A stretch of DNA of 25,685 nucleotides, taken from positions 1 through 25,685 of IMG/VR virus record IMGVR_UViG_3300010376_000123; one strand, written 5' to 3'. This document shows positions 3,774 through 24,407 of this stretch, one piece after another (within the stretch, counting starts at the first letter, position 1; each line of letters begins with the position of its first letter). Position numbers and translations under genes: made by a program. The notes below the pieces were generated by a model. That model was not told where the DNA came from, made no database searches, and worked only from the letters and a program-made list of their open reading frames with translations. This stretch comes from a virus (taxonomy: Duplodnaviria > Caudoviricetes).

Positions 3774-5219
3774 GTGACGCCGAGCGCAGAGCCGTCCTTC
3801 TGGCCCGCCCTGCGCGCCCTCCCCCCCGGCAAGCGCCGCAGCGCCGTCAAGGCCCTCTACGACGCCCTCGGCCCGCTCCGCCTCCGCCACCAACCCCCCG
3901 GCTTCACGCCCACCGCCAAGCAGGAAGCCTTCCTGCGCCTCGGCGCCCTGGAGGTCTTCTACGGCGGCTCGGCGGGGGGCGGCAAGACCGTCGCGCTGCT
4001 CGCAGCCGCCGCCCAGTACGCCGACGTCCCCGGCTACTCCGCGCTCCTCGTCCGCCGCACCTGGCCCGAACTCGTCCTCCCCGGCGGGCTCCTCCCGCTC
4101 AGCCACGCCTGGTGGGACCAGAGCGACGCCAGCTGGGTCGCGGGCGAGCGCCAGTGGCGCTTCGCCTCCGGCGCCACGATCACCCTCGGCCACCTCGACC
4201 ACCACTCCATGCGCCGCTACCAGGGCGCCGCCTTCCAGTTCATCGGCTTCGACGAGCTGACCCACTTCCCCCAGGGCGCCTACGAGTTCCTCTTCAGCCG
4301 CCTCCGCCGCCCCGAACAAGCCCCCACCCTCGCGACCAGCCCCGACGGGCTCAGCGTCGCCGCCATCCCCCTGCGCATGCGCTCCGCCTCGAACCCCGGC
4401 GGCCCCGGCCACATGTGGGTCAAGCGCCGCTTCGTCGACCAAGCGACCCGCGCCGAAGGCGCCCTCTACCTCCCAGCCCGCCTCCACGAAAACCCCTACC
4501 TCGACCAGCAGTCCTACACCACCAGCCTGCGCCAGCTCTCCGCCCTCGAACGCGGCCGCCTCCTCGAAGGCGACTGGTCCGCCCGCGAAGCAGGCGCCCT
4601 CTTCCAACGCGAGTGGCTCACCATCCTCGACCAGACCCCCCACGAGACCGAGATCGAGACCCGCATCCGCGCCTGGGACCTCGCCGCCACCGAGCCGACC
4701 GCCGCCAACCCGAACCCCGACTACACCGTCGGCGTGCGCATGGAACGAACGCACGACGGGCGCATCCTGGTCACGGATGTGCGCCGTGTACGCTTAAGCC
4801 CCGCCTCCGTCGAGCGACTGATCGCGAGAACCATGCGTGAGGACGGCCCCGCCTGCGCAGTCTGGATCGAGCAGGAGCCGGGCGCGAGCGGGAAGCTGTT
4901 CGTGTCCGGGCTGATGCGACGCCTCGGCGGGATCGCCCCCGCCTACGGCCAGACCACCAGCGGCGACAAGCTCACCCGAGCCAAACCCCTCGCCGCCGCC
5001 TGGGACCGCGGCGACGTCGCGCTCCTCCCCGGCGCCTGGACCGCCGCCTACCTCGACGAGCACGAAGCCTTCCCCTACGACGAGCACGACGACCAGGTCG
5101 ACGCGAGCGCGCTGGCCTACTCGAAGCTCGCGAGCGGCGTCGGCGCGCTGATCGAGACGCCCGAGCGCAACGGTCACGCCGAGCTGCCCGACTGGAACCC
5201 GTTGACGGTGACCTGGTGA
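3774..5219 (+). CDS. terL: Terminase large subunit
   Basis: Walker A YGGSAGGGKT, Walker B FIGFDELTHF, motif SASNPGG, nuclease motifs RAWDLAAT...PDYTVG and HDDQVDA. Confidence 0.95.
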   Translation: MTPSAEPSFWPALRALPPGKRRSAVKALYDALGPLRLRHQPPGFTPTAKQEAFLRLGALEVFYGGSAGGGKTVALLAAAAQYADVPGYSALLVRRTWPELVLPGGLLPLSHAWWDQSDASWVAGERQWRFASGATITLGHLDHHSMRRYQGAAFQFIGFDELTHFPQGAYEFLFSRLRRPEQAPTLATSPDGLSVAAIPLRMRSASNPGGPGHMWVKRRFVDQATRAEGALYLPARLHENPYLDQQSYTTSLRQLSALERGRLLEGDWSAREAGALFQREWLTILDQTPHETEIETRIRAWDLAATEPTAANPNPDYTVGVRMERTHDGRILVTDVRRVRLSPASVERLIARTMREDGPACAVWIEQEPGASGKLFVSGLMRRLGGIAPAYGQTTSGDKLTRAKPLAAAWDRGDVALLPGAWTAAYLDEHEAFPYDEHDDQVDASALAYSKLASGVGALIETPERNGHAELPDWNPLTVTW

Positions 5220-8200
5220 GCCCGCCCGTCGCGCCGGGCGCCCCCACCACGGAGATCGGCTACGCCGTCGACACCTCGACGACGAGCCTCGTCGTCGCAG
5301 GCGGCGGCCTGCCCAGCTGGCAGACGCTCGCCGAGGACACCCACGAGTACGTCGACGAGCTGTCCTGGCCACGCTCGGTCTACACCTACCAGCGGATGCG
5401 CAACGACGCCCAGATCGACGGCCTCATGCGCGGCTTCACCTGGCCGATCCGAAACTACGACTGGGCGATCGACCCCAGGGACTGCCCGCCCGACGCGGCC
5501 CAGCGGCTCGCCGACGACCTCGGCCTGCCGCTCCTCGGCGAGGAGATCACGAGCGAGGCGACCAGCGCGCGTCACTCCCGCGCCAGCGCCGACGAGCATC
5601 TGCGGATGGCGCTGCTCGCGCTCGTCTTCGGGCACATGTACTTCGAGCAGGTCGGCGAGATCGACGCCGACGGCTGGTGGCGCCTCACGAAGCTCGCCCC
5701 CCGCATGCCGTCGAGCATCGATCAGATCCTCGTCGCCCGCGACGGCGGCCTCGTCGGCATCCGCCAGCTCGGCAGTGACGTCGTGATCCCGGTGAACCGG
5801 CTCGTCGGCTACGTCTGGGACCGCGAGGGCGGCAACTGGTACGGCCGCTCGATCCTGCGCGCCGCCTACGCGCCCTGGCTGATCAAGGACCGCCTCTACC
5901 GGATCGACACCGTCAAGCACGAACGCACCGGGATGGGCGTCCCGATCATCACCCTCCCCGAAGGCGCGTCAGAGGCGCAGCGCCAGGCGGCGCTGCAGAT
6001 GGCCGAGCAGTTCCGGGGCGGTGACCTCGCGGGCGGCGCGCTCCCCTTCGGCCACCAGCTCAGCCTCGTCGGCGTGCAGGGCTCGACCTCGGACGTGCTC
6101 GGCTCGATCCGGTACTACGACGAGCTGATCGCGCGGATGCTGATGATGATGTTCACCCAGCTCGGCACGACCGAGACTGGGAGCCGCGCGCTCGGCCAGT
6201 CGTTCATGGACTTCTTCTCGCTCGCCCTCAGCGCGGTGGCGGAGTGGTACGCGGGCGTCGTCGACGCCTTCATCATCGCCGACTGGGTCGAGTGGAACCT
6301 CGGCGAGGACGCGCCGACGCCGCAGCTGGTCTTCGCGCAGGCACCCGAGCGTGTGCTCGCGCCGCCCGACCTCGTCGGGTTGATCAACGCGGGCGCCGTC
6401 GTCGTCGACGAGGAGCTGCGCGAGTGGATCGCGCACCGCTACGACATGCCCGCCCCCCCGCCCGACGCGCCCCTCCCGAGTCTCGGCGGCCCGACGAACC
6501 CGACGACCAGCCCGACCAGCCAGCCCGGCTCGGCGCCGCCCGCCGAGACACAGCCCGCGACGCTCGCGAGCGTCGAGGCGTACTACCCGCCCGGCCGTGA
6601 CGTCGGCCCGACCCCGCCCAAGGCGACGAGTCCGGCCTGGCCGTACCACCGCCAGCCCTTTCGCCACGAGGTCCAGGCGGCGGTCGACTACCCCGGCCTG
6701 GACCGCGACTTCCAGAAGGCGCTGGAGGCGACGCTGAAGACCTACCAGGCCCAGGTGCGTCCCGCCCAGCTACGCGCGATCGAGGCGGCCGCCGCGGCGG
6801 GCGACATCGGCCAGATCCTGAGCGCGCTCGATGCGGCCGGGCTCGACGGCGTCGAGGTGATCGCGCAGGGGATGCACGCGACGGCCCGCTCGGGCGTCAA
6901 GCACGCCCTCGCCGAGGCGCAGGCGCAGGGCGAGGCGATCCCCGAGCCGCCCCTCGACACCGCCCGCACGCTGCGCCGCGCCGCGTCGACCGACACTCTC
7001 CTGCGCCGTAGCCTGGCGCAGTCCGCCTACAACAAGGCGGCGATCCTCGCGCCCGACGGGATCGGCACGCCCGCCGTCGCGGGCGGCGTGATGAGCTACC
7101 TCAAGGGCCTGACCGACGCCTGGCTGCGCGACCAGCTCGTCGGCGCCCTCACCAGCGCCCAGAACGAGGGCCGACAAGCCGTCTTCGAGACCGCGGCGGG
7201 CGCCGGGATGGAAGCCTCGTACTACGCGAGCGAGGTGCTCGACGACGCGACCTGCGACGAGTGCCAGGCGATCGACGGCACCCAGTTCGACACCCTCGCC
7301 GACGCGCAGGACGCCTACCCGACCGGCGGCTACTCGGACTGCCTCGGCGGGCCTCGCTGCCGCGGCACGATCGTCGTCGTGTACGGCACGAGCGGCGTCG
7401 AAGGCTCGGCGCTGCGCGCCTACTCCGACGACCAGCCCCGCGACGAGACGGGCCGCTGGACGAGCGGTGGTGGTGGTGGGGACGGCGGCGGCGAGGCCGC
7501 GCCAGCCGATGCTGGGTCGGCGCCCGGCGCGCCGCCCGGCGTCCAGGTCGACCCGTCGAAGATCGGCCCGGACGGCTGGCCGGTCAAGGACGAGGGCGCG
7601 ACCGCCGTCCTCGGCGAGGCCGCGAACACCCAGGAGATGTACACCGTCGGGCGCGACGCGAACGGCGCGCCGATCTACAGCCCCGACCGGGCGGGTGTGC
7701 ACGACGCGATCGTCGCGGGCGCGACCGAGGGGCACGCCAGCCAGGAGGATCCCCGCGCGCTCTTCATGGCGGGCGGCCCCGCCTCGGGCAAGTCGACGGC
7801 GCTCGCCGGGCTTGAGGCGCAGGGCTCCGACCTCGTCCCCAAGGACGCCGTCAACGTCAACCCGGACGAGGTCAAGTCCGAGCTGCCCGAGTACAACCAG
7901 ATCAAGGACACCGGCTCGCTCTACGCCGCGACCGGCGTCCACGAAGAGTCCTCGGACATCGCCAAGCGGATCACGAACGAGGCGATCGCGAACGGCCAGA
8001 ACATGACCGTCGACGGCACCGGCGACTCGGGCGGCTCGAAGTTCCCCGACAAGCTGGAAGCCGCCGCGCAGACCCACCAGGTCGACGTGATGTACGCGAC
8101 GCGCACCACCCAGGGCGCCGTCGACCAGCAGATCGACCGGGTCGCGAAGACGGGACGCTACGTCCCCGAGGAGGAGCAGCGCTACCAGCACGCCCAGGTC

Positions 8201-8392
8201 TCCGCCGTCTACCCGAAGGTCGAGCAGATGGCCTACGAAGGCAAGATCAACAGCGTGCGTGTCTACGACACGGACACGAAGACGACGCTCGCGACCGTCA
8301 GCGCGGGGAGCCGCGAGATCCACGACCCGGTCGGCTACCAGCGCTTCCTCGACAAGGCGAACGAGTACACGGGCCCCAGGAAGGTCGGCTGA
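5216..8392 (+). CDS. Portal protein (DUF935/Mu gp29-like) fused to a MuF-like head morphogenesis domain and a C-terminal zeta-toxin-like P-loop kinase
   Basis: Portal about 5216-6450 (NWYGRSILRAAY, ERTGMGVP, GSRALG). Pro-rich linker. MuF-like region about 6640-7390 (LDDATCDECQAIDG...CLGGPRCRG). Kinase about 7600-8392 (FMAGGPASGKST, VNPDEVK, VHEESSDIA, NMTVDGT, RVAKTGRYVP). One uninterrupted ORF. Confidence 0.85.
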   Translation: MSPPVAPGAPTTEIGYAVDTSTTSLVVAGGGLPSWQTLAEDTHEYVDELSWPRSVYTYQRMRNDAQIDGLMRGFTWPIRNYDWAIDPRDCPPDAAQRLADDLGLPLLGEEITSEATSARHSRASADEHLRMALLALVFGHMYFEQVGEIDADGWWRLTKLAPRMPSSIDQILVARDGGLVGIRQLGSDVVIPVNRLVGYVWDREGGNWYGRSILRAAYAPWLIKDRLYRIDTVKHERTGMGVPIITLPEGASEAQRQAALQMAEQFRGGDLAGGALPFGHQLSLVGVQGSTSDVLGSIRYYDELIARMLMMMFTQLGTTETGSRALGQSFMDFFSLALSAVAEWYAGVVDAFIIADWVEWNLGEDAPTPQLVFAQAPERVLAPPDLVGLINAGAVVVDEELREWIAHRYDMPAPPPDAPLPSLGGPTNPTTSPTSQPGSAPPAETQPATLASVEAYYPPGRDVGPTPPKATSPAWPYHRQPFRHEVQAAVDYPGLDRDFQKALEATLKTYQAQVRPAQLRAIEAAAAAGDIGQILSALDAAGLDGVEVIAQGMHATARSGVKHALAEAQAQGEAIPEPPLDTARTLRRAASTDTLLRRSLAQSAYNKAAILAPDGIGTPAVAGGVMSYLKGLTDAWLRDQLVGALTSAQNEGRQAVFETAAGAGMEASYYASEVLDDATCDECQAIDGTQFDTLADAQDAYPTGGYSDCLGGPRCRGTIVVVYGTSGVEGSALRAYSDDQPRDETGRWTSGGGGGDGGGEAAPADAGSAPGAPPGVQVDPSKIGPDGWPVKDEGATAVLGEAANTQEMYTVGRDANGAPIYSPDRAGVHDAIVAGATEGHASQEDPRALFMAGGPASGKSTALAGLEAQGSDLVPKDAVNVNPDEVKSELPEYNQIKDTGSLYAATGVHEESSDIAKRITNEAIANGQNMTVDGTGDSGGSKFPDKLEAAAQTHQVDVMYATRTTQGAVDQQIDRVAKTGRYVPEEEQRYQHAQVSAVYPKVEQMAYEGKINSVRVYDTDTKTTLATVSAGSREIHDPVGYQRFLDKANEYTGPRKVG

Positions 8393-8589
8393 TGACGGAC
8401 TACACGAAGATCACCGAGGACGTCGACGCCGACCAGCTCGCGACGCCGAAGAAGCCGCCGACGGCGGCGCCGGTGCCCGTCTCGGACTCGGCCGACTACC
8501 TCGACCGGCCCGCGCCGGTCTACCAGCACGGCCCCGCCCAGGCGCCCGACTTCGACCGGCCGCCCGGCGGCCGAAGCGGGTCAACGTGA
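8392..8589 (+). CDS. Small Pro/Asp-rich protein (65 aa), candidate antitoxin/immunity
   Basis: TGATG overlap upstream and GTGA overlap downstream support a real gene. The function is inferred from position only. Confidence 0.6.
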   Translation: MTDYTKITEDVDADQLATPKKPPTAAPVPVSDSADYLDRPAPVYQHGPAQAPDFDRPPGGRSGST

Positions 8590-9956
8590 GCTTGACCACG
8601 ATCGAGGGTGTCGAGCTGCTCGACGTCGGCGAGAACTGGCCGCTCGCGAGTGGCTCGCAGACGTTCACGCTGGAAGACCTCGCCGCGGTGATCGAGTCGC
8701 AGGACGACCCCGCCGTGAAGGCGCCGCGGCTGAAGCTCGGCCACTCGGGGGCGGACTGGCAGAGCGCCGAGCCCGCCTTCGGGAGAGTCTCGAACCTGCG
8801 CGCCTCCGAGAACGGGATGACGCTGCTCGGCGACATCGAGGGCGTGCCGCAGTGGCTCGCGGACGTGATGCCGACCGCCTGGCCGAGCCGCTCGATCGAG
8901 GGCCGCTTCGCGGTGAAGACCGCGACCGGGCATCATCATCGTCTCGTGATCGACGCGGTCGCGCTGCTCGGCGTCGTGATGCCGGGCGTGTCGACGCTGG
9001 AGGACCTCGCCGCCGCCTACCAGGACGAGATGCCGGAGGGAGTGGAGCTTGCGATGAGCGAGAACGTGGTCGCCCGCCTCGCGCGCCGCGCGGTGGCGGG
9101 CCGCTCGACGGACGTCGAGGCGGTGCGCCGCAGCTTCTACGAGCAGGTCGCCAAGGGCGACAACGCCTGGTGGTGGATCCGCTCGCTGCAGGTCGACCCG
9201 GCCCAGGCGATCTGCGAGGACGAGCAGACCGGCGACCTCTACAAGGTGCCGTACACGATCGGCAAGGGCGGCGTCAGCTGGGGCGAGCCGCAGAAGGTCG
9301 AGGTGGTCTACCAGGACGCAAAAGCGTCGCGTGTCACGGCTGCAGCGTCGTGGCCGGAGCCCCTGGATTCGAGGAGAGGAGTGGCCGTGGATCCCACGGA
9401 GCTGCGCCAGAAGATCGGGCTCGCGCAGGACGCGAGCGAGGAGGAGGTGAGCGCCAGGCTCGACGCGCTCCACGCCTCGACGGCCGATCCGACGAACGAC
9501 CCCGAGCCGACGCCGCCCGCAGAGCCGGGCGACGACGACGAGGGCGACGAGGAGCCCGCGCCGGTCGAGGGCCCGCCGCTCGACCCGGGCGCGCCCGCCA
9601 CCCAGGCGTCTCAGCGGACGGTGCGCGTCGACGCCGAGACGCTCGACCAGCTCCGCCGCGACGCAAGACTCGGCGCGCAGGCGCGAGCGGTCCAGCTGGA
9701 TGCGGAGCGCGACCAGGTGATCACCGCCGCCGTCCAGGACGGGCGGATCGCCCCGGCCCGCGCGAAGGCGTGGCGCAAGGCGCTTGAGGCCGACCCGGGC
9801 GCCGCCGACGTGCTCGCCGGGCTTGAGCCGGACCTGATCCCCGTCCAGAACCGCGAGGTCGGCCGCGCCGATCACGACCTCGTCGCGAGCGCCGAGGCGT
9901 ACCCGGCGGAGTGGCTGACGACGCGCGAGCGTCGCCAGCTCGGGAAGGAGAGCTGA
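8586..9956 (+). CDS. Capsid maturation protease/scaffold (Mu gpI-like)
   Basis: GTG 8586. APRLKLGH...EPAFGRV...WPSRSIEG...AVALLGVVMPGVSTL protease region. C-terminal acidic and helical scaffold region (ELRQKIGLAQDASEEEV, AAVQDGRIAPA). Confidence 0.8.
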   Translation: MSLTTIEGVELLDVGENWPLASGSQTFTLEDLAAVIESQDDPAVKAPRLKLGHSGADWQSAEPAFGRVSNLRASENGMTLLGDIEGVPQWLADVMPTAWPSRSIEGRFAVKTATGHHHRLVIDAVALLGVVMPGVSTLEDLAAAYQDEMPEGVELAMSENVVARLARRAVAGRSTDVEAVRRSFYEQVAKGDNAWWWIRSLQVDPAQAICEDEQTGDLYKVPYTIGKGGVSWGEPQKVEVVYQDAKASRVTAAASWPEPLDSRRGVAVDPTELRQKIGLAQDASEEEVSARLDALHASTADPTNDPEPTPPAEPGDDDEGDEEPAPVEGPPLDPGAPATQASQRTVRVDAETLDQLRRDARLGAQARAVQLDAERDQVITAAVQDGRIAPARAKAWRKALEADPGAADVLAGLEPDLIPVQNREVGRADHDLVASAEAYPAEWLTTRERRQLGKES

Positions 9957-10384: not shown

Positions 10385-11365
10385 GTGCCACCGACTCAAG
10401 AGCTTGAGCGCACCGGCCGGGTGCGTGACGGGCGCGTGATCGCGGCCCAGCCCGCCTACCCGGCGAGGCCGCAGCACCCGCTCGGCGCGCCGACGCTGAG
10501 CGGCACCACGATCACCGTCGACATCATGCTCAACACGCCGACGCGGATCACCCGGATGATCATGGACCTCTCGCAGGAGCGGTTCATCACCGACCGGATC
10601 TACGCGAGCGCCGGGGGCGTCACCGGCGGCGCGGTGATCTTCGACATCCAGGACACGAACCAGCTCTACACGGACCGCGACGCCGAGCAGGTCTCGCCCG
10701 GCGCGAGCTTCCCGATCGTTACGAGCGTCCGTCTCGGCGCGGGCGTCGCCCCGGTCGAGAAGTGGGGCGCGAAGACGTTCATCACCGACGAGGCGCGTGA
10801 CCGCAACAACGCGGTGCTCTTCACGAACCAGCTGCGCCAGATGACGAACACCCTGATCCGCAAGATCAACGCTCGCGGGATGGCGGTCCTCAACGCGGCG
10901 CTGGCGAACTACCCCGCCCAGGTGATCGCGGGCCACAACTGGCAGACGGTGAACCTCCAGGGCTCCAGCCCGACGCCGGTCGCGCAGACCCCGGCGGCGG
11001 ACATCGCCAAGGCCCAGCAGCAGGCCGAGACCCAGGAACTCGGCATGGTCTACGACACGCTCCTCTTGAACCCGCAGGAGGCGAACCAGGTCAACCTGAT
11101 CTACTCGGTCGTCGCGGGCGGCTGGGACGCGATCGCCGCGAGCTGGGGGATCACCGAGACGTACGCCTCTCCCCGGATCGCTCCCGGCATCGGCTACGTG
11201 ATCGCCTCGCAGCAGGCGGGCGGGATGCGGACCGAGAAGCCGCTCGGGACGGAGACGTGGCGCGAGGCCGAGACGGAGCGCACCTGGGTGCAGGCGTCGG
11301 TCAGGCCCGTCTTCTACGTCGACAACCCGACGGCGGTCGTCGAGCTGACCGGACTGGCCGGGTGA
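10385..11365 (+). CDS. Major capsid protein
   Basis: GTG 10385 after strong SD AAAGGAGG. 326 aa. EQVSPGASFP, VEKWGAKTFITDEARDRN and YDTLLLNP motifs are typical of HK97-fold capsids. Position fits. Confidence 0.85.
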   Translation: MPPTQELERTGRVRDGRVIAAQPAYPARPQHPLGAPTLSGTTITVDIMLNTPTRITRMIMDLSQERFITDRIYASAGGVTGGAVIFDIQDTNQLYTDRDAEQVSPGASFPIVTSVRLGAGVAPVEKWGAKTFITDEARDRNNAVLFTNQLRQMTNTLIRKINARGMAVLNAALANYPAQVIAGHNWQTVNLQGSSPTPVAQTPAADIAKAQQQAETQELGMVYDTLLLNPQEANQVNLIYSVVAGGWDAIAASWGITETYASPRIAPGIGYVIASQQAGGMRTEKPLGTETWREAETERTWVQASVRPVFYVDNPTAVVELTGLAG

Positions 11366-14009: not shown

Positions 14010-14186
14010 ATGCCGGAGTACGTCGTGATCGCGAACCACCCGGTCACGTTGCCCGACGGCCGCATGGCCGGGATCTACGAGCACGTCACGACCGACGACG
14101 ACGTCGAGGGCCTCGTCGAGGACGGCCTCCTCGCGCCCGCGGTCGAGGCCAAGGCGAAGCGTCAGACGAAGGAGGGATCGGCATGA
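14010..14186 (+). CDS. Small hypothetical protein (58 aa), absent from the ORF track
   Basis: SD GAGGAGG upstream. MPEYVVIANHPVTLPDGRMAG...GLVEDGLLAP...; ATGA overlap with the sheath start. Confidence 0.7.
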   Translation: MPEYVVIANHPVTLPDGRMAGIYEHVTTDDDVEGLVEDGLLAPAVEAKAKRQTKEGSA

Positions 14187-15613
14187 GACCCGGAGTCGAG
14201 GTCACGATCTCGGACCAGCCGCCGCCCGTCTCGGCGCCGGTCTCGACGGACACCTGGTTCGTCACCGGGATCACCCAGATGGGGCCGACGAGCGGCCCCA
14301 GCCTGATCACCAGCATGCGCGACTACGCCGCGGTCTTCGGGGCCCGCGACGCGACCTACCCGCTGCTCTACGACAGTCTCGACTGCTACTTCCAGGAGGC
14401 CGGGGCCCGCGCCTACGTGGCGAGGACGGTCGGCCCCGCCGCGGCCGGGGCGACGGCGGTGCTCGGGGTCGTCACGATCAAGGCCTCGCCGGGCGTCTGG
14501 GCGAACACCTACACCGCCCAGGCGGCGCAGGACACGAGCGTGCCGCCGAAGGGGCAGATCACGATCAAGGACGGCACGGGCGCGATCGTCGCCCAGTCGC
14601 CCTGGGTCGCGGACGCCTCCGGCTTCCCCGCCTGGGGCAACACTCTCCCGAACTTCGACTGCACGACGACCGGCACGACGCTCCCGCCCGCCGCCGCCGC
14701 CGTCACCTTCTCGGGCGGCGCGGACGACCGCTCGAACATCACCGCGACCCAGCGCCAGGCCGCGCTCGACTCGTTCAGTGACGGCCTCGGGCCGGGCCAG
14801 GTCTCGATGCCGGGCCAGACCGACGACCCGTCCCACACCGCGCTCCTCAACCACGCCGACGCGCATAACCGCTTCGCGATCTGCGACGCGCCCGACACCG
14901 CGACCGTCGCGACGCTGCAGTCCTCGGCGCTGGCGATGCGCACCCTCGGCAAGGTCTCGCGCCGCGGTGTGCTGGTCGCGCCCTGGGGCCAGCTCGCGCC
15001 GCTCACGATCGGCGGCGCCGTCCGCGCCGTCCCGTTCGGCGCGGCGCTCGCCGGGATCATCGCCCGCAACACGACCGCCGCCCCCGCCGGGCAGGCCTCG
15101 GCGGGCACGATCTTCGGCTCGTCGTTCTCGATCGTCAGCCTCAACTACGACCTCTCGACGGTCCGCGACCAGCTCAACACCGCAGGCGTGCTCGTCGCCC
15201 GCCCCGTCTACGACGTGATCTGCGCGTACGGCCTGCGCACCCTCACCGACCCGACCTCCGACTCGCTCTGGCTGCAGTACCCCGGCGTGCGCATCGTGAT
15301 GGCCGTCGACGCCCAGGCGAACGCGATCGGCGAGCGTTACGTCTTCCGCCAGCTCGACGGCAAGGGCCTCGCGATCAGCCAGTTCGGCGGCGAGCTGGAC
15401 GCGATGCTGCTCGGCTTCTTCACGGACGGCTCGCTCTACGGCGAGACCCCCGGCGACGCCTTCAAGGTCGACGTCGGCCCCGCCGTCAACACGCCCACCA
15501 CGATCTCGAACGGCGAGCTGCACGCGATCATCCGGATGCGCACCAGCCCGGGCGCGGAGCTGGTCACGATCGAGATCGTGAAGCGCTCGATCACCCAGGA
15601 CCTCGCCGCCTAG
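14183..15613 (+). CDS. Contractile tail sheath protein
   Basis: MRPGVEV N-terminus, ITSMRDYAAVFG, FSGGADD, NRFAICDAP, YGLRTL, AFKVDVGPAVNTPTTISNGEL. Confidence 0.92.
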   Translation: MRPGVEVTISDQPPPVSAPVSTDTWFVTGITQMGPTSGPSLITSMRDYAAVFGARDATYPLLYDSLDCYFQEAGARAYVARTVGPAAAGATAVLGVVTIKASPGVWANTYTAQAAQDTSVPPKGQITIKDGTGAIVAQSPWVADASGFPAWGNTLPNFDCTTTGTTLPPAAAAVTFSGGADDRSNITATQRQAALDSFSDGLGPGQVSMPGQTDDPSHTALLNHADAHNRFAICDAPDTATVATLQSSALAMRTLGKVSRRGVLVAPWGQLAPLTIGGAVRAVPFGAALAGIIARNTTAAPAGQASAGTIFGSSFSIVSLNYDLSTVRDQLNTAGVLVARPVYDVICAYGLRTLTDPTSDSLWLQYPGVRIVMAVDAQANAIGERYVFRQLDGKGLAISQFGGELDAMLLGFFTDGSLYGETPGDAFKVDVGPAVNTPTTISNGELHAIIRMRTSPGAELVTIEIVKRSITQDLAA

Positions 15614-15626
15614 AAGGGAGCTGATC

Positions 15627-16046
15627 ATGGCCGACTGGTCCCGTAAGGACCGCTTCCGGCTGACCGCGAACATCGGCGGCCGCGACACCGGCGTCTGGTC
15701 GCAGAAGACGGGCGGCGACCTCGACTCGGAGGAGACGCTCTTCCACCCCGGCGGGATGGCCCAGCCCGTCAGCCTGGGAGGCCGCTACACCTTCGCGACG
15801 CTCACCCTGGAGCGCGGCTACGACCCCGTCGCCGACGCCGACCTGGTGCGGTTCCTCGCCCAGAACCGGGGACGCGCGAAGGTCCAGGCCGTCCAGCAGA
15901 GCCTGGACGTGGACGGGAACGCGATCGACGGTGCGCGCCTCACCTACGCGGGCACCCTCAAGCTCTTCCAGCCGCCCGAGGTCGACGCCGAGTCGAACGA
16001 CGCCGCCAAGCTCCACTGCGAGTTCACGATCGAGAGCGTGACGTGA
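15627..16046 (+). CDS. Tail tube protein
   Basis: 139 aa directly after sheath; WSQKTGGDLDSEE, TLTLERGY. Confidence 0.8.
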   Translation: MADWSRKDRFRLTANIGGRDTGVWSQKTGGDLDSEETLFHPGGMAQPVSLGGRYTFATLTLERGYDPVADADLVRFLAQNRGRAKVQAVQQSLDVDGNAIDGARLTYAGTLKLFQPPEVDAESNDAAKLHCEFTIESVT

Positions 16047-16609
16047 CCAACGTCGAGGAGCCGTGGTCGGCCGACGAGACCGCCCCGACGCTCGCCGCGC
16101 TCCCCGCCGCCCAGGACGCCGACCCCGGCTCGGTGCTCGCGCGCCTCAGGGCCCAGCGCGAGGGGGAGCAGGCCGACGAGACGCGGGACCTCGTCGTGCC
16201 CGGCTGGGGCAGGGGGCTTCAGGTCGTCGCGCGCTACGGCAAGACGCCGTACGCCCAGACCCGCGGCCTCACCCGCCGCGTCGTCCAGCAGGGCGGGATG
16301 ATGGATCTGGCGACCGCCTGCGACCTCCTCATCCTGGCGCTGCGCGACCTGCTCGTACGCGACCTCGACGCGGGCCCCGACGCGCCCCTCCAGCAGATCA
16401 CCGACGGCGAGGAGCTGCGCTACGGCGCGCGGATGCTGGAGGTCCTCGGCCGCCCGGCCCGCCCGACGGTGCGCGAGGCCGTGCTGAGCGTCTACAACGG
16501 CGAGCAGGCCGCGATCGTCGCGCACGCCTCGCAGCTCCTCAACTGGTACGCGGGCGCCGACGAGGAGGACCTCGGCCGCGCCCTGGAGGACCGCCTGGGG
16601 GAATCCTGA
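16043..16609 (+). CDS. Tail assembly chaperone (G-like)
   Basis: Lies between tube and tape measure and ends just after the slippery sequence GGGGGAA. Confidence 0.75.
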   Translation: MTNVEEPWSADETAPTLAALPAAQDADPGSVLARLRAQREGEQADETRDLVVPGWGRGLQVVARYGKTPYAQTRGLTRRVVQQGGMMDLATACDLLILALRDLLVRDLDAGPDAPLQQITDGEELRYGARMLEVLGRPARPTVREAVLSVYNGEQAAIVAHASQLLNWYAGADEEDLGRALEDRLGES

Positions 16610-16806
16610 CGACACCCGTCCCGCACGTGATCGCCCAGGCCTGCCTGGCGGGGCTGCCCGGCTGGCTCGTCGCGACGACGGACGACCCGGTGACGCTCGA
16701 CCTCCTCCAGGCCGCGAGCCGCGCCGCGCTGCGCCAGCAGGAGGTGCGCGACAAGAACCTCGCGGTCTACATCGCGAACGCGATCGCGCGGAGCCAGCGT
16801 GGCTGA
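16597..16806 (+). other. Programmed -1 frameshift site and GT-like extension
   Basis: G GGG GAA at 16597-16603. The -1 frame reads ILTTPVPHVIAQAC...IARSQRG to 16806, overlapping the tape measure start. Confidence 0.75.
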
Positions 16807-18631
16807 GGCCGACGTCCAGGTCAGGATCCTCTTGGAGGGCGCCGACCAGTACGTGATCGACATCCACAAGGTCGGCCAGGCGACCGAGCAGGCCGCGACC
16901 CAGGCGGGCGAGTCGTCCAAGAAGGCGGCGGGCGGGATCGGCAAGTGGGTCAAGGCGCTCGCGACGGCGGGGATCGTCTACAAGACGTACGGCTACCTCA
17001 AGGACGCCGTCTCCTCCACCATCTCGCTCGCGGTCGGCACGAGCCGCCTGCAGTCCGTCACGAACCTCGACACGAAGACGGCGAGCGCCTGGATCACCCT
17101 CGCCAAGTCTCGTCACATCTCGGCGCAGATCCTGCAGCGCTCGTTCATCCAGCTCGGCGCGGCGGTGACCCGCTCGACCGCGGCGCACGCCAAGGCCCGC
17201 GCCAAGGCGGCCGACCTCACCCTCCAGCTCAAGGCCCTCAACGCCCAGCCGGTGCAGGGCGCCAAGGACGCCCTCAAGCACGCCACCGCCGTCGGCAAGC
17301 TCTCCGAGAAGATCGCCAAGGCGAGGATCGTCACCGACACGTCGAGCGCCGCCTTCAAGACGCTCGGGCTGACCCAAAAACAGCTCACCACCGGCTCGTC
17401 CGAAGGCGTCCTTTTGCGCGTCGTCGAGGGCCTCAAGAAGATCCGCGACCCCTCGATCCGGGCCGCGGCGGGGCAGAAGCTCCTGGGCCGCTCGTTCGTC
17501 GCGCTCGCGCCGCTGCTCGCGAAGGGCTCGAAGGGCGTCGAGGAGGCGCTCGGCCACGTCAAGCGCTTCGGGCCCGTCCTCGACGACGCCGGGAAGAAAC
17601 GCGCGCTGGCGGCGCGCGACGGCTTCCGTGACCTCAACGAGCAGTCCGAGAAGCTCAAGACCACCATCGGGTTGACGCTGATCCCGACGCTCTCCTCGCT
17701 CGCGAAGGAGCTGGGCAAGATCCTCACCGCCGCCCAGCCGCTCTTCAACCTCATGAGCAAGTACCCGGGCGTGACGGCCGCCGTCGCGGGCGGGATCGCC
17801 GCGCTCGTGCTCAGCTTCAAGATCGCGGGCAGCGCCGTCGAGCTGTTCCAGCTGGAGCTGTCAGCGGGCCCGCTCGGGTTGATCATCTTCGCGATCGCCG
17901 CGCTCGTGATCGGCCTCGTGATCGCCTACAAGAAGGTCGGCTGGTTCCGCAACGCCGTCAACGACGCCTGGAACATCATCAAGCTCGTCTACGGCTGGAT
18001 CAGCCAGATCTGGTCGAACAACGCGAGCCGGATGCTGACCCAGCCGTTCGACTGGATGATCCGCGAGGCGAAGGCCGCGTTCGACTGGGTGAAGCAGAAC
18101 TGGCCGCTGCTCGTCGAGGTGCTCGGCGGCCCGCTCGGCCTGGCGATCGTCCAGATCATCCAGCACTTCGGCGCCCTCAAGAGCGCGGCGCACGACGTCT
18201 GGAACGTGATCCAGGACGTCGCCCACGCGATCATCGGCGCGTTCGGCTGGATCATGAACGCGATCCAGCCGCTGATCGACGCGCTCAAGACCGCCGTCGG
18301 CTGGGTCAAGACCGCGGTCAACGCCGTCAGCCAGTCCGGCCCCGCCGTGACGGGGCAGGCGGGGATCTACTCGTCGGTCACCAAGCGCTCGGCGCGCAGT
18401 GGCGGGGCGGGGATGTTCGCCCACCACCAGTACGGCGGCTTCGTCCGCGGCGGCGGCCCGGTGCTCGTCGGCGAGCAGGGCCCCGAGCTGGTCTCGCTGC
18501 CCGTCGGCTCGCAGGTGCACCAGGCGGGCCGCGGCGGCGGGATGACGGTGCACACCCACGTCTACCTCGACCGCCGCCAGATCGCAGAGGCCGTCGGGCA
18601 GGCCGTAGCCGACCGCAAGGCGCGCAGATGA
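16799..18631 (+). CDS. Tape measure protein
   Basis: 610 aa, Ala/Lys-rich helical sequence. IAYKKVGWFRNAVN, periodic Trp residues, C-terminal GGFVRGGGPVLVGEQGPELV. Confidence 0.9.
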   Translation: MAEADVQVRILLEGADQYVIDIHKVGQATEQAATQAGESSKKAAGGIGKWVKALATAGIVYKTYGYLKDAVSSTISLAVGTSRLQSVTNLDTKTASAWITLAKSRHISAQILQRSFIQLGAAVTRSTAAHAKARAKAADLTLQLKALNAQPVQGAKDALKHATAVGKLSEKIAKARIVTDTSSAAFKTLGLTQKQLTTGSSEGVLLRVVEGLKKIRDPSIRAAAGQKLLGRSFVALAPLLAKGSKGVEEALGHVKRFGPVLDDAGKKRALAARDGFRDLNEQSEKLKTTIGLTLIPTLSSLAKELGKILTAAQPLFNLMSKYPGVTAAVAGGIAALVLSFKIAGSAVELFQLELSAGPLGLIIFAIAALVIGLVIAYKKVGWFRNAVNDAWNIIKLVYGWISQIWSNNASRMLTQPFDWMIREAKAAFDWVKQNWPLLVEVLGGPLGLAIVQIIQHFGALKSAAHDVWNVIQDVAHAIIGAFGWIMNAIQPLIDALKTAVGWVKTAVNAVSQSGPAVTGQAGIYSSVTKRSARSGGAGMFAHHQYGGFVRGGGPVLVGEQGPELVSLPVGSQVHQAGRGGGMTVHTHVYLDRRQIAEAVGQAVADRKARR

Positions 18632-18711
18632 GCGCGGATACCTGGACCGCCCCGCGACGCGCGAGACGGCTCCTGAGAGGCCTCTGCGGGGGTGATACGC
18701 GGTGGTCGTGA
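18628..18711 (+). CDS. Possible 27-aa bridging mini-ORF
   Basis: MSADTWTAPRRARRLLRGLCGGDTRWS. ATGA overlap with the tape measure stop and GTGA overlap with the next start. Codon usage is atypical. Confidence 0.35.
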   Translation: MSADTWTAPRRARRLLRGLCGGDTRWS

Positions 18712-19427
18712 AGAAGAAGGTGGTGCCGAAGCGGGCGAAGGTCGTGCTGCGCGGCCCCCAGGTCGAGCGGCGCGCCCTCTCGATCGGCACGGGCCAGCGG
18801 CGCGTCACGATCGCGAGCCTCGCCCCGCGCCTCTCCGTCACCTGCCTCCTCGACGACGCGCCGCCCAAGCTCTCGGGCTACGGGGGTTGGCAGACGGTCG
18901 CCCGGCCCCAGCGCCGCTCGATCGTCGAGTGGCAGGGCCTCGACCCGTGGCTGCTCGAACTCGCCGTGATCCTCGACGGCTGGGCGTCGCGTACCAGCGT
19001 CGAGCACGACTGCGCGACGCTCGCGACGCTCGCCACCCCCGGCGGCGCCTTCCAGCCGCCCCCGACGGTCGGCGTGAACCTCCCCGCCCTCGTCCTGCCC
19101 GACACCGCCTGGGTGATCCAGACGCTCGACTGGGGCACGAACGTGATCCGCGACGAGGACGCCAAGGGCAACGTCTACCGGCTCCGCCAGGACGCCGCCC
19201 TCCAGCTGATCCAGCTCGTCGAGGCCTCGACGCTGCGCCGCCAGCGTCCCACCGCGGGCCGCAAGAAGGCGAACGCGGGCTCGGCGAAGTGCCCCGCCCC
19301 GGGCGGCTCGCGCGGCGTCGCCAAGCTCGCCGCCGCCCACCACACGACCAGCGCCGCGATCCTCAAGGCGAACAAGCTGCGCGACGCCGCGAAGGTCAAG
19401 GCCCACCAGGTGCTGAGGCTGCCGTGA
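18708..19427 (+). CDS. Tail tube initiator / baseplate protein with C-terminal LysM-like domain (start 18702 or 18708)
   Basis: GGWQTVARPQRRSIVEWQG, WVIQTLDWG. C-terminal [36 protein letters not shown] is LysM-like. Confidence 0.75.
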   Translation: MKKKVVPKRAKVVLRGPQVERRALSIGTGQRRVTIASLAPRLSVTCLLDDAPPKLSGYGGWQTVARPQRRSIVEWQGLDPWLLELAVILDGWASRTSVEHDCATLATLATPGGAFQPPPTVGVNLPALVLPDTAWVIQTLDWGTNVIRDEDAKGNVYRLRQDAALQLIQLVEASTLRRQRPTAGRKKANAGSAKCPAPGGSRGVAKLAAAHHTTSAAILKANKLRDAAKVKAHQVLRLP

Positions 19428-20830
19428 GCGCGACCGCGGGCATGAAGAGCGACCTGAGCCACGTCGTCCTCAACGGGCGAAAGCTGCGCGGCGACGTGGC
19501 GGGCGCGATCACCGACGCGACGCTTGAGCGCACGATCGACGGCTGCTCGACGATCACCCTCGTGCTCGACGACCACGCCCGCACGATCATCACCTCGCCG
19601 CTCGTCGCGCAGGCCGCCCAGCTCTCCTTCGACGGCCTGGCGTTCACCCTCTCGGCGGTGCAGAAGCAGTCCGACCAGGTCACCCTCACCTTCGAGGAGA
19701 CCGCCGTCGCGCGCCTGCGGCTCCAGACGAAGCCGGTCGCGAAGAGCCGCTCGGCGATGACGAGAGCCCAGTTCGCGGGCTTCCTCGTCGCCGAGCTGAC
19801 ACACCCCACCGTGCCCTTCTGGTGCCCCGAGGAGACGGAGCGCCAGAAGGTCGCAGGCCGCGCCGGGAAGTACCAGTTCACGCGGGGCGGGCAGGGCCAG
19901 ATCGAGGACTCCTGGGCGGCGCTCCAGCGGCTCGCGCAGGAGGTCCAGTGGCGCTGCTTCTGCCGCGCCGGGACGATCGTCTTCGCGCGCGACGCGACGC
20001 TCCTCGCACAGCCCGTCGCGCTCAAGCTGACGGAGCGCACGAGCGGCGTGAACGGGATCGACTTCGACTACGACCCCGGCAAGAAGGCGCAGACCGCGAC
20101 CGTGAACTGCCGGATCGACAAGTGGAGCGTTCCGCCCGGATCGCCTGTCAGCGTCTCGGGTTGCGGCGTCGGCAACGGCACCTGGCTCGTCCAGTCGATC
20201 AACCGCTCGCTCTTCTACCCCGAGGGCTCCGTCCAGCTCACGAGGGCCCAGGCGCAGAAGCTCGAACCGGCGGGGAACGTGCCGACCCGGGTGCGGGTCG
20301 GCTCGGGCGGCGGCAAGAACCTCGCGGCGATGGCGGGCGCCCCCTCGGGCGGGCTCGCCGACCTCGGCAACATCATGGTGCGCTGGGGGCTGCAGCTGCT
20401 CGGCCGCAACAACTACCGCTACGGCGCGGGCCACCTCGGCTACCCCGCGATCAAGAACGTGACGCCGCCGATGGACTGCTCCGCGTTCGCGGCGGGCTGC
20501 GCCGCCCAGATCGGCGTCGACATCACCGGCACGACCTACACGATGGCCTCCGCGGGCCGCACCAGCCGCGCCGCGCACGGCTTCGGCGGCTCGCCGCCCG
20601 GCGGCTGGCTGCCGGGCGACATCATCGAGCCGTTCGATCACCACGTCTCGGTCTGCATGGGCAACGGGCACGTCGTCGAAGCGCTCTGCACCGCCTGCGG
20701 GATCGTCGTCAGCCCCCAGACCGGGCCGTACGCGAACCCCTACTTCTGGTGGCGCGTGACCGAGCTGTCACCGCTGCTCGCCCAGTTCGCGGCGCAGGAC
20801 GCCGCCAAGAAGACGACGAGGCACAAGTGA
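19424..20830 (+). CDS. Baseplate hub (late control D-like) fused to NlpC/P60 peptidoglycan hydrolase
   Basis: Hub motifs [19 protein letters not shown] and [14 protein letters not shown]-terminal YRYGA...MDCSAF...PGDII...[15 protein letters not shown] carries the Cys/His catalytic residues. Confidence 0.8.
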
Positions 20831-21819
20831 GCCAGTACATCGACGAGCTGACCGCGCCCGACAAGGCCCCGCTGCGCGGCGCCTACGCCGACGACCCGGC
20901 CGGGGAGTGGGTCGAGGGTGTCTGCGCCGCGACGCCCGCTCAGGGTGAGGGGGTGATGGTCGCGCTGCCCGGCTTCGACGGCGGCCAGAGCGTCTTCGGG
21001 CCCCTCCCGTACGACGCGCCGATCGCGCGCAAGCCACAGTCGGGGGACCGCGTCCTCGTGCTCGTTCAGGGCTCCGAGGCGTGGGCCGTCTCGTGGTGGC
21101 CGCAGGGCGACTTCACGGAGGGCTCGACCGGCGGCGGCGGCGGCACGATCGTCTCGGGCACCTGGAACTGGACGACCTCCACGAGCGGCGCGACCAGCTC
21201 GGGCGACGTCGGGATCAACACCGCCGCCTGGGCGACCGCCACCCAGATCAACGTCTCCGAGCACACCAAGACGGGTGGTGACGCCACGAGCGCGCTCGGG
21301 CTGGTCCAGCCGGGCGACGAGTTCTATCTCCAGGACACGAACGACGCGACCAAGTACGGGCACTACAGCGCGACCGCGGCGGGCACCGACCAGGGCACCT
21401 ACCGCTCCTTCCCGGTGACGCTGATCGGCTCAGGCGCGGGCGGCCTGCCAGCCAACAACCGCGACACGCTCCTGACGATCCGCACGCCCGCCCCGCCCGG
21501 CCCGCAGGGTCCGGCGGGTCCTGCCGGGCCGACGGGTCCCGCTGGCCCGACCGGCCCTCAAGGCCCCACCGGCGCGACCGGCCCGCAAGGCCCGCAGGGT
21601 GCGACCGGCGCGCAGGGCAACACCGGCGCGACCGGCCCCCAGGGCCCGCCAGGCGCGACCGGCCCCACCGGCTCCACCGGCCCGGCAGGTCCCGGCGTGC
21701 CCGTCGGTGGCGCGACCGGGCAGGTGCTCACCAAGACCAGTGCGACTGACTACGCCACCAGCTGGCAGACCCCGGCTGGTGGCGGAACCGGCGTCGATCT
21801 CCTGCTGATGGGCGGCTAG
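20827..21819 (+). CDS. Baseplate spike-like (gpV-type OB fold) protein with collagen-like repeat
   Basis: N-terminal VMVALPGFD...GPLPY...PQSGDRVLV, a middle beta-rich domain, (Gly-X-Y) repeat, then [20 protein letters not shown]. Confidence 0.65.
21499..21696 (+). repeat. Collagen-like (Gly-X-Y)22 coding repeat
   Basis: [12 protein letters not shown] ... GPA GPG, counted by hand as 22 triplets. Confidence 0.9.
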
Positions 21820-21821
21820 GC

Positions 21822-22151
21822 GTGCCGACGACGTACAAGGTGCTCGGCCAGCAGGCTCCCGCGGCGGCGACCGACGCGACGCTCTACACCGTCCCCGCCG
21901 CGACCCAGACGATTATCTCGACGCTCGTCGTCACGAACCGGGGAGCGAGTCCGACGACGTTCCGGCTGCGCGTCGCGGTCGGCGGCGCGGCGGTCGCGAA
22001 CCAGCAGTACCTCGCCTACGACGTCGTCATCCCCGCCCTCACGCTCCTGACGCTGACGATGGGCGTCACGCTCGCGGCGACCGACCAGATCGTCTGCCAG
22101 TGCGGCGCGGCGCAGGTCTCCTTCCAGGCGTTCGGGCAGGAGAACTCGTGA
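21822..22151 (+). CDS. Small tail/fibre-associated structural protein
   Basis: MPTTYKVLGQ..P.A.T..TLYTVPA...YLAYD pattern of a beta-rich protein I recognise from phage tail regions. Confidence 0.7.
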   Translation: MPTTYKVLGQQAPAAATDATLYTVPAATQTIISTLVVTNRGASPTTFRLRVAVGGAAVANQQYLAYDVVIPALTLLTLTMGVTLAATDQIVCQCGAAQVSFQAFGQENS

Positions 22152-23476: not shown

Positions 23477-24297
23477 CCGTCGAGTCGTTCCCCGGAGCAG
23501 CCAGCCAGGTCGCAGGACCGCTTCCCGGCCTCGAAGTCCAGCGCGCTGCGGGCCTCACCGTCGCACCCTCGACCTGGACGGCGCTGGGCTGGGACGCCGT
23601 CACGACGCGCGGCGCGGCGCCGCTCATCCCGCTCTGGGTAGCCGCCAACCCGACACGCCTCTACGCGGACAGGGACGGCTGGTGGTCGCTCAGCGCCTCC
23701 AACTCCTGGCCGCCCGGCGCGACCGGCACGTTCCGGGGGATCGGCGCGGCGAACTCGGCCGCAGCGCTGATCGGCACGAGCTACGTCACGCCCAGCGGCG
23801 GTTACCTCGTCACGCTCTACAACCGCGTCATCTGGATGACCGCTGGTGACTGGATCGAGGTGCGCGTCGCTCACGACTACACCTCGGCGATCAACACGAA
23901 CCCCGGCAGCAACAACTGCTCCGCCTCCTGGCAACCCATCCAGGGCGTCAAGGGTGACACCGGCGCGAGCGGTCCGCCCGGAGCGGTCGGCAGTGCGATC
24001 GTCAGCGCCTGGACGGGCTTCACCGGCACGTACGACGCGACCAAGCCGCTGCTGCTCTTTTCCGGCTCGAACGTGATCGTCGGCAACGGCGGCACGGCCT
24101 ACACGATCACCCATAACCTCGGCCTGACGTTCGTGCACAACCTCTTTGTCTCGACCGGCTCGGCAAACGGCTTCGGCGCTGGCGCGGGCACGGACGACTC
24201 GCCGGTGACAAACAACGCCTTCAGCTTTCATACCTACGCGACGATCGCGAACGGCTTTTCGGTGCGTTTCAACTGGATGGTGATTGGACAGCGATGA
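23473..24297 (+). CDS. Second fibre / receptor-binding paralog
   Basis: ATG 23473. Shares the MTVESFP start and the [14 protein letters not shown] and [10 protein letters not shown] motifs with the previous gene. C-terminus differs (TITHNLG...FNWMVIG). Confidence 0.7.
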
Positions 24298-24407
24298 CGG
24301 CGAGCCTGGAGCTGGATCACCTCTGCGGCAACCCCTCCTGTGTCAACCCACAACATCTGGAGCCGGTGACTCACCGCGAGAACGTTCGGAGGGGGCGACG
24401 ATGGTAG
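24294..24407 (+). pseudogene. HNH endonuclease remnant / mini-ORF (37 aa), absent from the ORF track
   Basis: [37 protein letters not shown] matches the DHLC.N..CVNP.HLE.VT..EN core of HNH_3-type nucleases. Confidence 0.8.

Follow-up and report, generated by a model that had tools for sequence, protein, structure and literature searches.

What does a zeta-toxin-like kinase do at the end of a phage portal protein? The question is raised by a virus fragment of 25,685 nucleotides (Duplodnaviria; Caudoviricetes; IMG/VR record IMGVR_UViG_3300010376_000123), the whole of which is referred to here as the window. In this stretch, one open reading frame (ORF) joins a portal domain, a MuF-like minor head domain, and a P-loop kinase of the zeta/AvrRxo1 fold, and a 65-residue ORF follows directly. 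Below, we establish the fusion, the boundaries of the added cassette, the exchange of cargo at this site, the retention of the catalytic residues, the loss of the zeta signature for uridine diphosphate N-acetylglucosamine (UDP-GlcNAc), and the linkage of kinase and partner gene. Our answer to the question is tentative and falls somewhat short of an even chance: a portal-MuF protein with a mobile kinase cassette would be loaded into the head, muzzled by the partner, released, and left to phosphorylate an adenine nucleotide of the host. The features on which the argument rests, all on the plus strand, are as follows (pLDDT is the predicted local distance difference test score).

5216..8392, plus strand: portal + MuF-like + zeta-family kinase fusion ORF, 1058 residues (translation, Pfam, PHROG, contigs)
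5387..6418, plus strand: portal domain, PF06074, residues 58-401 (Pfam E 1.8e-37; Foldseek E 5.6e-19)
6446..6649, plus strand: proline-rich disordered linker, residues ~411-478 (pLDDT <50 over residues 424-472; poorly conserved)
6653..7387, plus strand: MuF-like minor head domain, residues ~480-724, with four conserved cysteines (phrog_595, homolog alignment)
7421..7459, plus strand: short junction tag, residues 736-748, aromatic-x3/4-[HQ]PR-x(n)-G-x-[WF], which opens the added cassette (motif count)
7460..7582, plus strand: Gly/Ala/Pro-rich spacer, residues 749-789 (sequence)
7583..8389, plus strand: zeta/AvrRxo1-fold P-loop kinase, residues 790-1058, with K859, D884, H909-E-E-S-S913, D933-G-T-G-D937, R975, and R981 (Pfam, profile, fold)
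8392..8589, plus strand: 65-residue partner ORF, putative kinase binder, with a conserved peptide at residues 29-44 (8476-8523) (TGATG overlap with the kinase gene, GTGA overlap with the protease gene)
8586..9956, plus strand: prohead protease/scaffold, candidate releasing enzyme (phrog_3894 E 6e-85; Mu-like_Pro)
3774..5219, plus strand: terminase large subunit (Pfam, PHROG)
10388..11365, plus strand: major capsid protein (Pfam, PHROG)

The Fusion ORF

The 1058-residue frame translates without a stop. Its GTG start codon overlaps the stop codon of the terminase gene, its TGA overlaps the ATG of the 65-residue ORF, and it lies in a head-tail operon between the terminase and prohead protease genes. 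Every element named in the initial annotation is present, namely the portal, the proline-rich linker, the cysteine-containing MuF-like domain, the glycine-rich spacer, and the P-loop kinase. The profile checks proposed there gave a mixed outcome: Portal_Mu (DUF935, PF06074) and Zeta_toxin (residues 838-1025, E 1.7e-25, with 90 bits where the cut-off is 22) both match, whereas Phage_Mu_F does not, the middle domain matching phrog_595 instead. The solved portals nearest to the portal domain by Foldseek are those of G20c/P23-45/P74-26.

Whether the fusion is real was checked on assembled contigs. A run that is possibly the source spans the whole stretch. A contig from a run of a different study covers 6991-7448 with 0 differences and bridges the MuF end (~7387) into the added cassette, and two runs of further studies contribute other contigs over parts of 7582-8306; for 7449-7581, the contigs listed come from the possible source run alone. 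The fusion protein's cluster has a second member, but as its sequence is the same, it adds no independent support. An assembly artefact or chance read-through was rejected in view of the independent contig over the MuF end, the uniform G+C content at third codon positions (0.96-0.97 alike in portal, MuF, kinase, and 65-residue ORF), the junction tag, and parallel fusions elsewhere. The fusion initially proposed therefore stands as one stop-free frame with an independent contig over 6991-7448, with contigs taking the place of the raw reads that had been called for. In run X3, positions 7380 and 8594 are joined by one contig of depth 2.6 that has 55 letters on its short side; it may come from an empty-site relative, is too weak, and was not counted. 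Run X4 (share 0.07) was not used as evidence.

The MuF-like Domain and the Added Cassette

The middle domain gives no match to Pfam Phage_Mu_F (PF04233). Residues 646-724 match phrog_595 (E 3.8e-10), the domain matches Arthrobacter phage genes annotated "MuF-like minor capsid protein," and four cysteines, C680, C683, C709, and C715, are conserved in 97% of 73 homologs; on these sequence grounds, the domain is assigned as divergent MuF-like. The window MuF profile cross-matches Pfam-MuF proteins weakly, reaching at least 12 bits on 2 of 30.

The last cysteine motif occurs in 71 of the 73 portal-MuF homologs, which end 6-41 residues later (the other two have no motif), and the window fusion runs 341 residues past it. 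Because 71 of 73 portal-MuF relatives stop just after MuF, the kinase is best seen as a late add-on. The MuF profile matches in 46 of 126 loci examined, the window included; the 15 other portal-MuF fused loci with DNA context all end within 15 residues of the MuF domain, carry no kinase, and, where the protease could be located, leave 20-993 nucleotides before it. Other cargo is found on the same MuF family: ArV1 gp3 has a papain-fold deamidase, and a prophage protein (L278) has an EndoU nuclease. Cargo on this head module is thus exchangeable. The Mu-type portal in P0107 carries an ADP-ribosyltransferase.

ArV1 gp3 (L243:2866-4833, Arthrobacter phage), in which the papain-fold enzyme is a glutamine deamidase, is followed by three small genes and then a structural gene. 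The slot between MuF and protease genes is filled by varied unrelated genes, one of which (L244:8103-8705) resembles, by eye, a sigma-factor-type protein.

Among 333 kinase proteins, 68 have the junction tag upstream of the kinase (shuffles predict 3.2), and the tag occurs in 3 of 73 portal-MuF controls. It also recurs before cargo domains in P0012 (four copies), P0013, L043, and L133, and in 12 of 73 cases it is no more than 30 residues from an N terminus. The tag, the zeta-fold kinase, and the small partner gene are read here as a mobile cassette that was acquired by a portal-MuF protein. Neither the tag nor the downstream 65-residue ORF had been remarked on in the initial annotation. No repeats, promoters, or terminators were found marking the cassette.

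The Kinase Active Site, Fold, and Acceptor

The kinase model (269 residues) has a pLDDT of 95. The motifs picked out earlier are all in place: the Walker A motif GGPASGKST at 853-861, NPD884, VD933GT, and R975...GR981YVP. Across 343 non-redundant domains, K859 is kept in 339 of 340, D884 in 340 of 341, R975 in 341 of 341, and R981 in 341 of 342. With the P-loop lysine, the catalytic aspartate, and the lid arginines nearly invariant, the kinase looks active. The equivalents of zeta K46, T47, D67, K70, and R158 are K859, S860, D884, K887, and R975.

On the acceptor side, the residues with which zeta binds UDP-GlcNAc, E100, T118, R120, T121, and T128 (PMC4938570, as far as its text was available), align by profile with K917, T935, D937, S938, and K946, of which one is identical and one conservative. 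The replacements are family-wide, the E100 position being mostly lysine (257 of 342) and the R120 position mostly aspartate or asparagine (310 of 339). Because four of these five residues differ, in the window as across the family, UDP-GlcNAc is not supported as the default substrate and should not be assumed for this zeta-labelled family.

The top fold match is AvrRxo1 (Z 19.7, root-mean-square deviation (rmsd) 4.1, 244 residues aligned; also Foldseek rank 1), followed by zeta (Z 18.7, rmsd 3.4, 222 residues), PezT (Z 17.3), and polynucleotide kinases (Z 11-13). The kinase shares with AvrRxo1 an R825..H829 helix, the NPD..K motif, and H909xESS; among the compared structures, R825..H829 and HxESS are seen in AvrRxo1 alone. 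The HxESS motif is absent from zeta and PezT and is kept across the window's family (H909 in 338 and E911 in 341 of 342). AvrRxo1 is a 3'-kinase of nicotinamide adenine dinucleotide (NAD) and nicotinic acid adenine dinucleotide with a kcat of 430 per s, and UDP-GlcNAc and UpA are reported in the available text not to be its substrates (PMC5087710, PMC5491322). The plant enzyme NADKc-1 is described, in the part of its report available, as a second zeta-domain NAD kinase (10.1101/521658). The AvrRxo1 gene, too, is followed downstream by the gene of an inhibitor, Arc1. From these likenesses, the probability that the acceptor is an adenine nucleotide would be about one half.

Several observations weigh against that assignment. 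AvrRxo1 and zeta lie within 1 Z unit of each other (19.7 versus 18.7) and are in effect tied, the sequence profile favors zeta (1gvn, E 5.9e-18) over AvrRxo1 (E 1.2e-9), and identity to AvrRxo1 is only 20%. The G-T-G of zeta is kept after D933, where AvrRxo1 has K-R-L, and Pnkp1, a polynucleotide kinase, has a matching lid motif as well (E 9.9e-10). The literature found describes no tested role of the HxESS residues in NAD binding, and ng_zeta1 binds a UDP-sugar despite a different residue signature (PMC5923241, in the text available).

The alternative that survives best keeps the enzyme as virion cargo and has it phosphorylate UDP-sugars, as zeta/PezT or ng_zeta1 do, weakening cell-wall synthesis for DNA entry or lysis, a reading that goes back to Iyer 2017 and is among those of the initial annotation. 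It draws on the 90-bit Zeta_toxin match, the top profile match to 1gvn, the tied fold score, the retained G934-T935-G936, the different residue set through which ng_zeta1 binds its UDP-sugar, and a homolog, L099, that carries a peptidoglycan-binding domain. It has to contend with a substrate site in which only T118 of the five residues is identical and the E100 and R120 positions are replaced throughout the family, and with the lack of an epsilon antitoxin (the gene upstream of the fusion is the terminase, and the fusion ORF contains no epsilon domain). A drain on wall precursors after entry also could hardly aid entry itself. We consider this alternative unlikely, with a UDP-sugar acceptor put at one fifth and polynucleotide ends somewhat lower.

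The Partner Genes

The core peptide of the 65-residue ORF (residues 29-44) is found in cis behind the kinase in P0005, P0007, P0008, P0009, P0010, P0140, P0231, and L093; in P0255, a ninth case, it is weaker and was seen by eye, and in L151 it forms a separate downstream frame. P0005 and P0010 are portal-kinase-peptide proteins. In a quick maximum-likelihood (ML) tree, all 11 peptide carriers fall within one starred set of 21 rows that includes the window kinase. The 65-residue ORF has no Pfam match, and the double-tyrosine motif of Arc1 (as given in the available text of PMC4938570) is absent from it by inspection.

Complex prediction with the kinase and partner residues 11-52 scored 0.69, against 0.02 for the best control. 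The score mark applied was passed by 116 of 157 solved pairs and by 2 of 215 mismatched pairs, counts that are rough because our own alignments were used. Contact agreement between runs was at least 69%, and partner pLDDT was at least 51. The predicted contacts involve the N-terminal hairpin and kinase residues 883, 913-921, 932, 934, and 942-946, on the acceptor side, and the partner is thus predicted to bind the kinase next to the acceptor site. Against a muzzling role, it must be said that the best-confidence contacts amount to a single strand pairing with the hairpin, that partner pLDDT is low, and that binding does not show inhibition.

Most other kinases of the family have a different partner, a two-helix protein of 55-70 residues with no Pfam match in the three tested. 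The corresponding gene is the next one in 64 of 93 clusters (43 of 72 non-seed clusters), and in 14 clusters it occupies another position in the locus, frequently on the opposite strand; in 15 clusters, neither partner reaches threshold. The two-helix partner is present in 76 of 94 kinase cluster loci and in 0 of 117 kinase-free head loci (1.09 Mb). Membership of the 65-residue ORF in this family was rejected, as there is no profile match and the hhalign probability is 0.1%. The gene neighborhoods thus establish that kinase and partner are strictly linked, and both partner families are undescribed.

The two-helix partner is also found fused N-terminally to longer proteins (L036:5455-6066, L040:4199-4918, L063:3081-3794, L067:6456-7940, and L080:3823-4551), the shared C-terminal part of which resembles, by eye, an XkdF-type prohead protease.

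Carriers of the Kinase Family

With a threshold of E <=1e-10 on 50%-identity representatives, the kinase family comprises 1,870 clusters, not all of them from phages. Among 34 long kinase homologs, 8 carry a portal and 8 a MuF domain, one carrying both (portal or MuF in 15 of 34). Of the 76 cluster representatives that are 330-1500 residues long, the 58 longer ones were examined as locus ORFs. A portal domain is found in 6 and a MuF domain in 22, one ORF having both; VG15 is found in 1 and an XkdF protease in 2, and 30 of the 58 have at least one of these. Four portal families carry the kinase: PF06074, PF04860, PF06381, and PF05136. In the quick ML tree (128 kinase domains), carriers of a portal and carriers of MuF are intermixed, and starred branches force at least four label changes.

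The triple fusion is not unique. P0015, L118, L015, and probably the BFVD entry A0A6J5S9A2 also combine portal, MuF, and kinase; the portal of L015 is 27% identical to that of the window, and its MuF-like domain was recognized at 17.7 bits by the window-derived profile. With these proteins known, and with MuF-zeta fusions already in print (PMC5512222), the novelty first suggested for this architecture was overstated.

A neighborhood census with home-made markers was positive at no fewer than 32 of 62 loci of at least 6 kb, and known portal and MuF cases were missed by it. A single-protein kinase scan of viral contigs returned no match. One relative speaks against a general tie to heads, a stand-alone gene of Bacteroides phage DAC16 whose neighbors are small and include no annotated head gene; it is gp76 (L002:5776-6621), and no partner match was found in its locus. 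Two kinase domains per polypeptide are seen in P0003, L048:4758-9008, and L151:1110-3998, and many top representatives show two stretches. Look-alike clusters in the ESM Atlas provide leads: one has 92% viral members, in one the viral members are mostly Nucleocytoviricota, and one is mostly diatoms.

Virion Carriage and Proposed Release

Carriage in the virion, proposed for the window protein, is borne out for a relative. Gp30 of cyanophage P-SS2 (L001:6786-11285) consists of MuF, a kinase 34% identical to that of the window, and ~900 further residues, and gp33 (67 residues, L001:11705-11905) is a member of the two-helix partner family (25.9 bits; best of 9,120 shuffles, 8.1). Particles of P-SS2 yielded a mean of 96.5 peptides for gp30 and 2.5 for gp33 (PMC2784084, Table 2), which weakly suggests that kinase and partner travel together.

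Some points count against carriage and ejection as proposed. The available part of PMC2784084 does not place the P-SS2 peptides within the kinase domain, and several other small proteins have values in the range of 2.5 peptides. MuF biology is poorly known, and the available text of PMC12226406 goes no further than saying that heads are "thought to" contain 2-3 copies of MuF proteins. No demonstration of ejection was found in the literature, and the window's own linkers contain no strict candidate cut site.

Of 38 portal-MuF linkers, 21 contain the pattern [VLI]-x-A-[AS] (shuffle mean 8.7, maximum 16 of 500), which is also present in the window protease/scaffold (8586-9956) and near the N terminus of the capsid protein (10388-11365). 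It is a candidate maturation site of this phage group, chosen post hoc. K, R, or A precedes 29 of 61 internal tags (14.8 expected). Since the motif was picked after its consensus had been seen and the window linkers have no strict match, no cut site is claimed.

Proposed Mechanism and Remaining Alternatives

In the reading tentatively favored here, a portal-MuF protein gained the cassette of tag, zeta-fold kinase, and small partner gene. Portals are dodecamers, and their C-terminal crown faces the capsid interior. The fusion would likely load the kinase into the virus head, in up to 12 copies, where the partner would bind it and keep it off. Because the portal stays in the capsid, proteolytic release would be needed, and the kinase would likely be cut free by the neighboring protease and delivered with the DNA into the host. 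There it would phosphorylate an adenine nucleotide, for which NAD or a molecule derived from it is the likeliest candidate, and the benefit may lie in altered NAD-dependent metabolism or defense in the first minutes of infection. The cellular NAD pool is of the order of a million molecules; at the AvrRxo1 rate, 12 copies would perform ~5,000 turnovers per second, which we infer to be enough against such a pool.

A bolder form of this reading is speculative and on balance improbable: a widespread, undescribed class of virion-borne NAD/ADP-ribose kinases, with up to 12 copies on the portal muzzled by a co-packaged peptide, released at tagged junctions and ejected, that would phosphorylate NAD or NAD-derived immune signals and so disable NAD-dependent defenses ahead of all phage gene expression. 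No report of phages phosphorylating NAD or NAD signals against defense was found in the literature searched.

Alternatively, the kinase could stay in the capsid and belong to a late toxin-antitoxin pair that acts in the producing cell and hitch-hikes on the head operon, the fusion being incidental. Lysis tuning, competitor exclusion, or prophage stabilization would be its role, and the layout of a toxin gene followed by a small gene, the acceptance of many unrelated genes in the MuF-protease slot, and the retention of portals at ejection all fit. So do the many relatives that are short or stand-alone and the 14 clusters with the partner elsewhere, often on the other strand. An incidental fusion is harder to reconcile with in-frame joining repeated on four portal families, MuF, and proteases, with the presence of both partners in P-SS2 particles, and with P0005 and P0010, where the partner is in cis behind portal and kinase. 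We judge this possibility doubtful, slightly more so than a virion-borne UDP-sugar kinase.

Less likely again is a kinase acting on polynucleotide ends, which would repair RNA or DNA termini that host nucleases have cut as infection begins. In its lid motif and P-loop, the window kinase matches Pnkp1 and T4 Pnk. There is also a match to phrog_505 (E 8.9e-5), and fusions to a 2H phosphoesterase and to topoisomerase IB are seen in one homolog each. The fold scores of Pnk enzymes are clearly lower, however (Z 11-13 over ~150 residues), no ligase is present among the 23 ORFs scanned in the window (a record 53% complete), and a healing enzyme has no obvious need of a dedicated partner. AvrRxo1 itself, once proposed to be a Pnk, is inactive on UpA according to the available text of PMC5087710.

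Finally, the partner could activate the kinase, be a structural subunit, or serve as a substrate peptide, with something else as acceptor (a protein or an unrelated small molecule), in line with its cis position in nine kinases, its co-detection in particles, and the strand it is predicted to add to the hairpin, but two unrelated partner families (with no hhalign alignment) share the gene position, as is usual for immunity proteins, and the predicted interface is on the acceptor side, which makes this the most improbable of the four.

Genomic Setting

The record is 53% complete and occurs in soil metagenome runs. The tail sheath gene in the operon identifies a contractile-tailed phage. The cultured phages nearest in the head module infect Arthrobacter, ArV1 being an example, and encode the portal and the MuF-like protein separately; the nearest genome-borne copy of the module comes from a Solirubrobacterales assembly. 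Since nearly all of the 36 genome loci of the related head module are actinobacterial, an actinobacterial host is probable. No integrase was found among the 23 ORFs scanned of this incomplete record, and related head modules sit in actinobacterial genome assemblies. NCBIfam and PADLOC searches gave no useful match.

Elsewhere in the window, a 270-residue ORF at 663-1475 lies upstream of the small terminase gene (phrog_15934, E 2e-17). The contractile-tail module (14180-24715) encodes a short tape measure of 610 residues, LysM and NlpC/P60 proteins, and a weak gp25-like match; inside it, near 21400-21800, is a Gly-Pro-rich, collagen-like fiber region.

Comparison with Described Systems

Zeta-toxin-like kinases fused to MuF domains have been described in phages and proposed to weaken the cell wall, and portal fusions of other enzymes are also reported (Iyer 2017, PMC5512222, in the text available); Nudix, 2H, and ADP-ribosyltransferase fusions were added later (Iyer 2022, PMC9503650, likewise). 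The window protein resembles these polyvalent, head-fused effectors in uniting a structural domain and an enzyme in one head-module polypeptide and in the shuffling of cargo domains among homologs. The available Iyer text mentions no portal-fused zeta kinase or partner gene, and the figures or FTP files may list such architectures; it assumes a cell-wall-precursor substrate, which the window residues do not support. In the open-access literature, no account was found of a portal-fused zeta kinase, of the partners, or of an assay.

MuF toxins, as defined in the available text of Jamet 2017 (PMC5576092), come with small downstream ORFs. The window shares with MuF polymorphic toxins (PMC5576092, PMC3482391, in part) the combination of a C-terminal enzyme that varies and a small downstream ORF in the packaging module, here with a MuF-like domain; its small ORF (<150 residues) lies directly downstream, being 65 residues long, coupled, and kinase-linked. 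It differs in that the MuF-like domain is internal, behind a portal, rather than N-terminal, and in a copy number that would be up to 12 against the 2-3 assumed for free MuF proteins. Zeta is absent from the main text and six searchable supplements of Jamet, and the window-type partner can occur in cis.

AvrRxo1/Arc1 (PMC5087710, PMC5491322, PMC4938570, in the text available) has in common with the window the fold, the catalytic residues, the R..H helix, HxESS, and an inhibitor-like downstream gene, and differs in the low identity (20%), in K-R-L for G-T-G, and in a partner unrelated to that of the window. AvrRxo1 is secreted by type III secretion, whereas the window kinase is carried on a phage portal. 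Zeta/PezT and ng_zeta1 (1gvn, 3q8x, 2p5t, 6eph) share the fold, P-loop, catalytic aspartate, lid arginines, and G-T-G; the window does not keep the UDP-GlcNAc-binding residues and has no upstream epsilon. P-SS2 gp30/gp33 (PMC2784084, as far as available) match in having MuF, the same kinase family, and a partner gene, with both products in particles; the kinase there is not portal-fused, and the partner is of the other family. In the available text of the original P-SS2 paper, gp30 is called the major capsid protein, and the kinase is not mentioned.

Implications

What is new here is the altered acceptor signature and the two partner families, the class of head-fused effectors having been described already. 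The family is routinely labelled zeta toxin, and its residues argue against assuming UDP-GlcNAc. The release and injection of portal- and MuF-fused enzymes is a long-standing proposal that this kinase family allows to be tested directly, with practical handles in a compact domain of 269 residues, a small-molecule product that can be read by liquid chromatography-mass spectrometry (LC-MS), and a cultured phage, P-SS2; the partner peptide, if an inhibitor, should allow cloning. If the acceptor does turn out to be NAD or an ADP-ribose signal, the kinase would represent a new phage strategy against NAD-based immunity.

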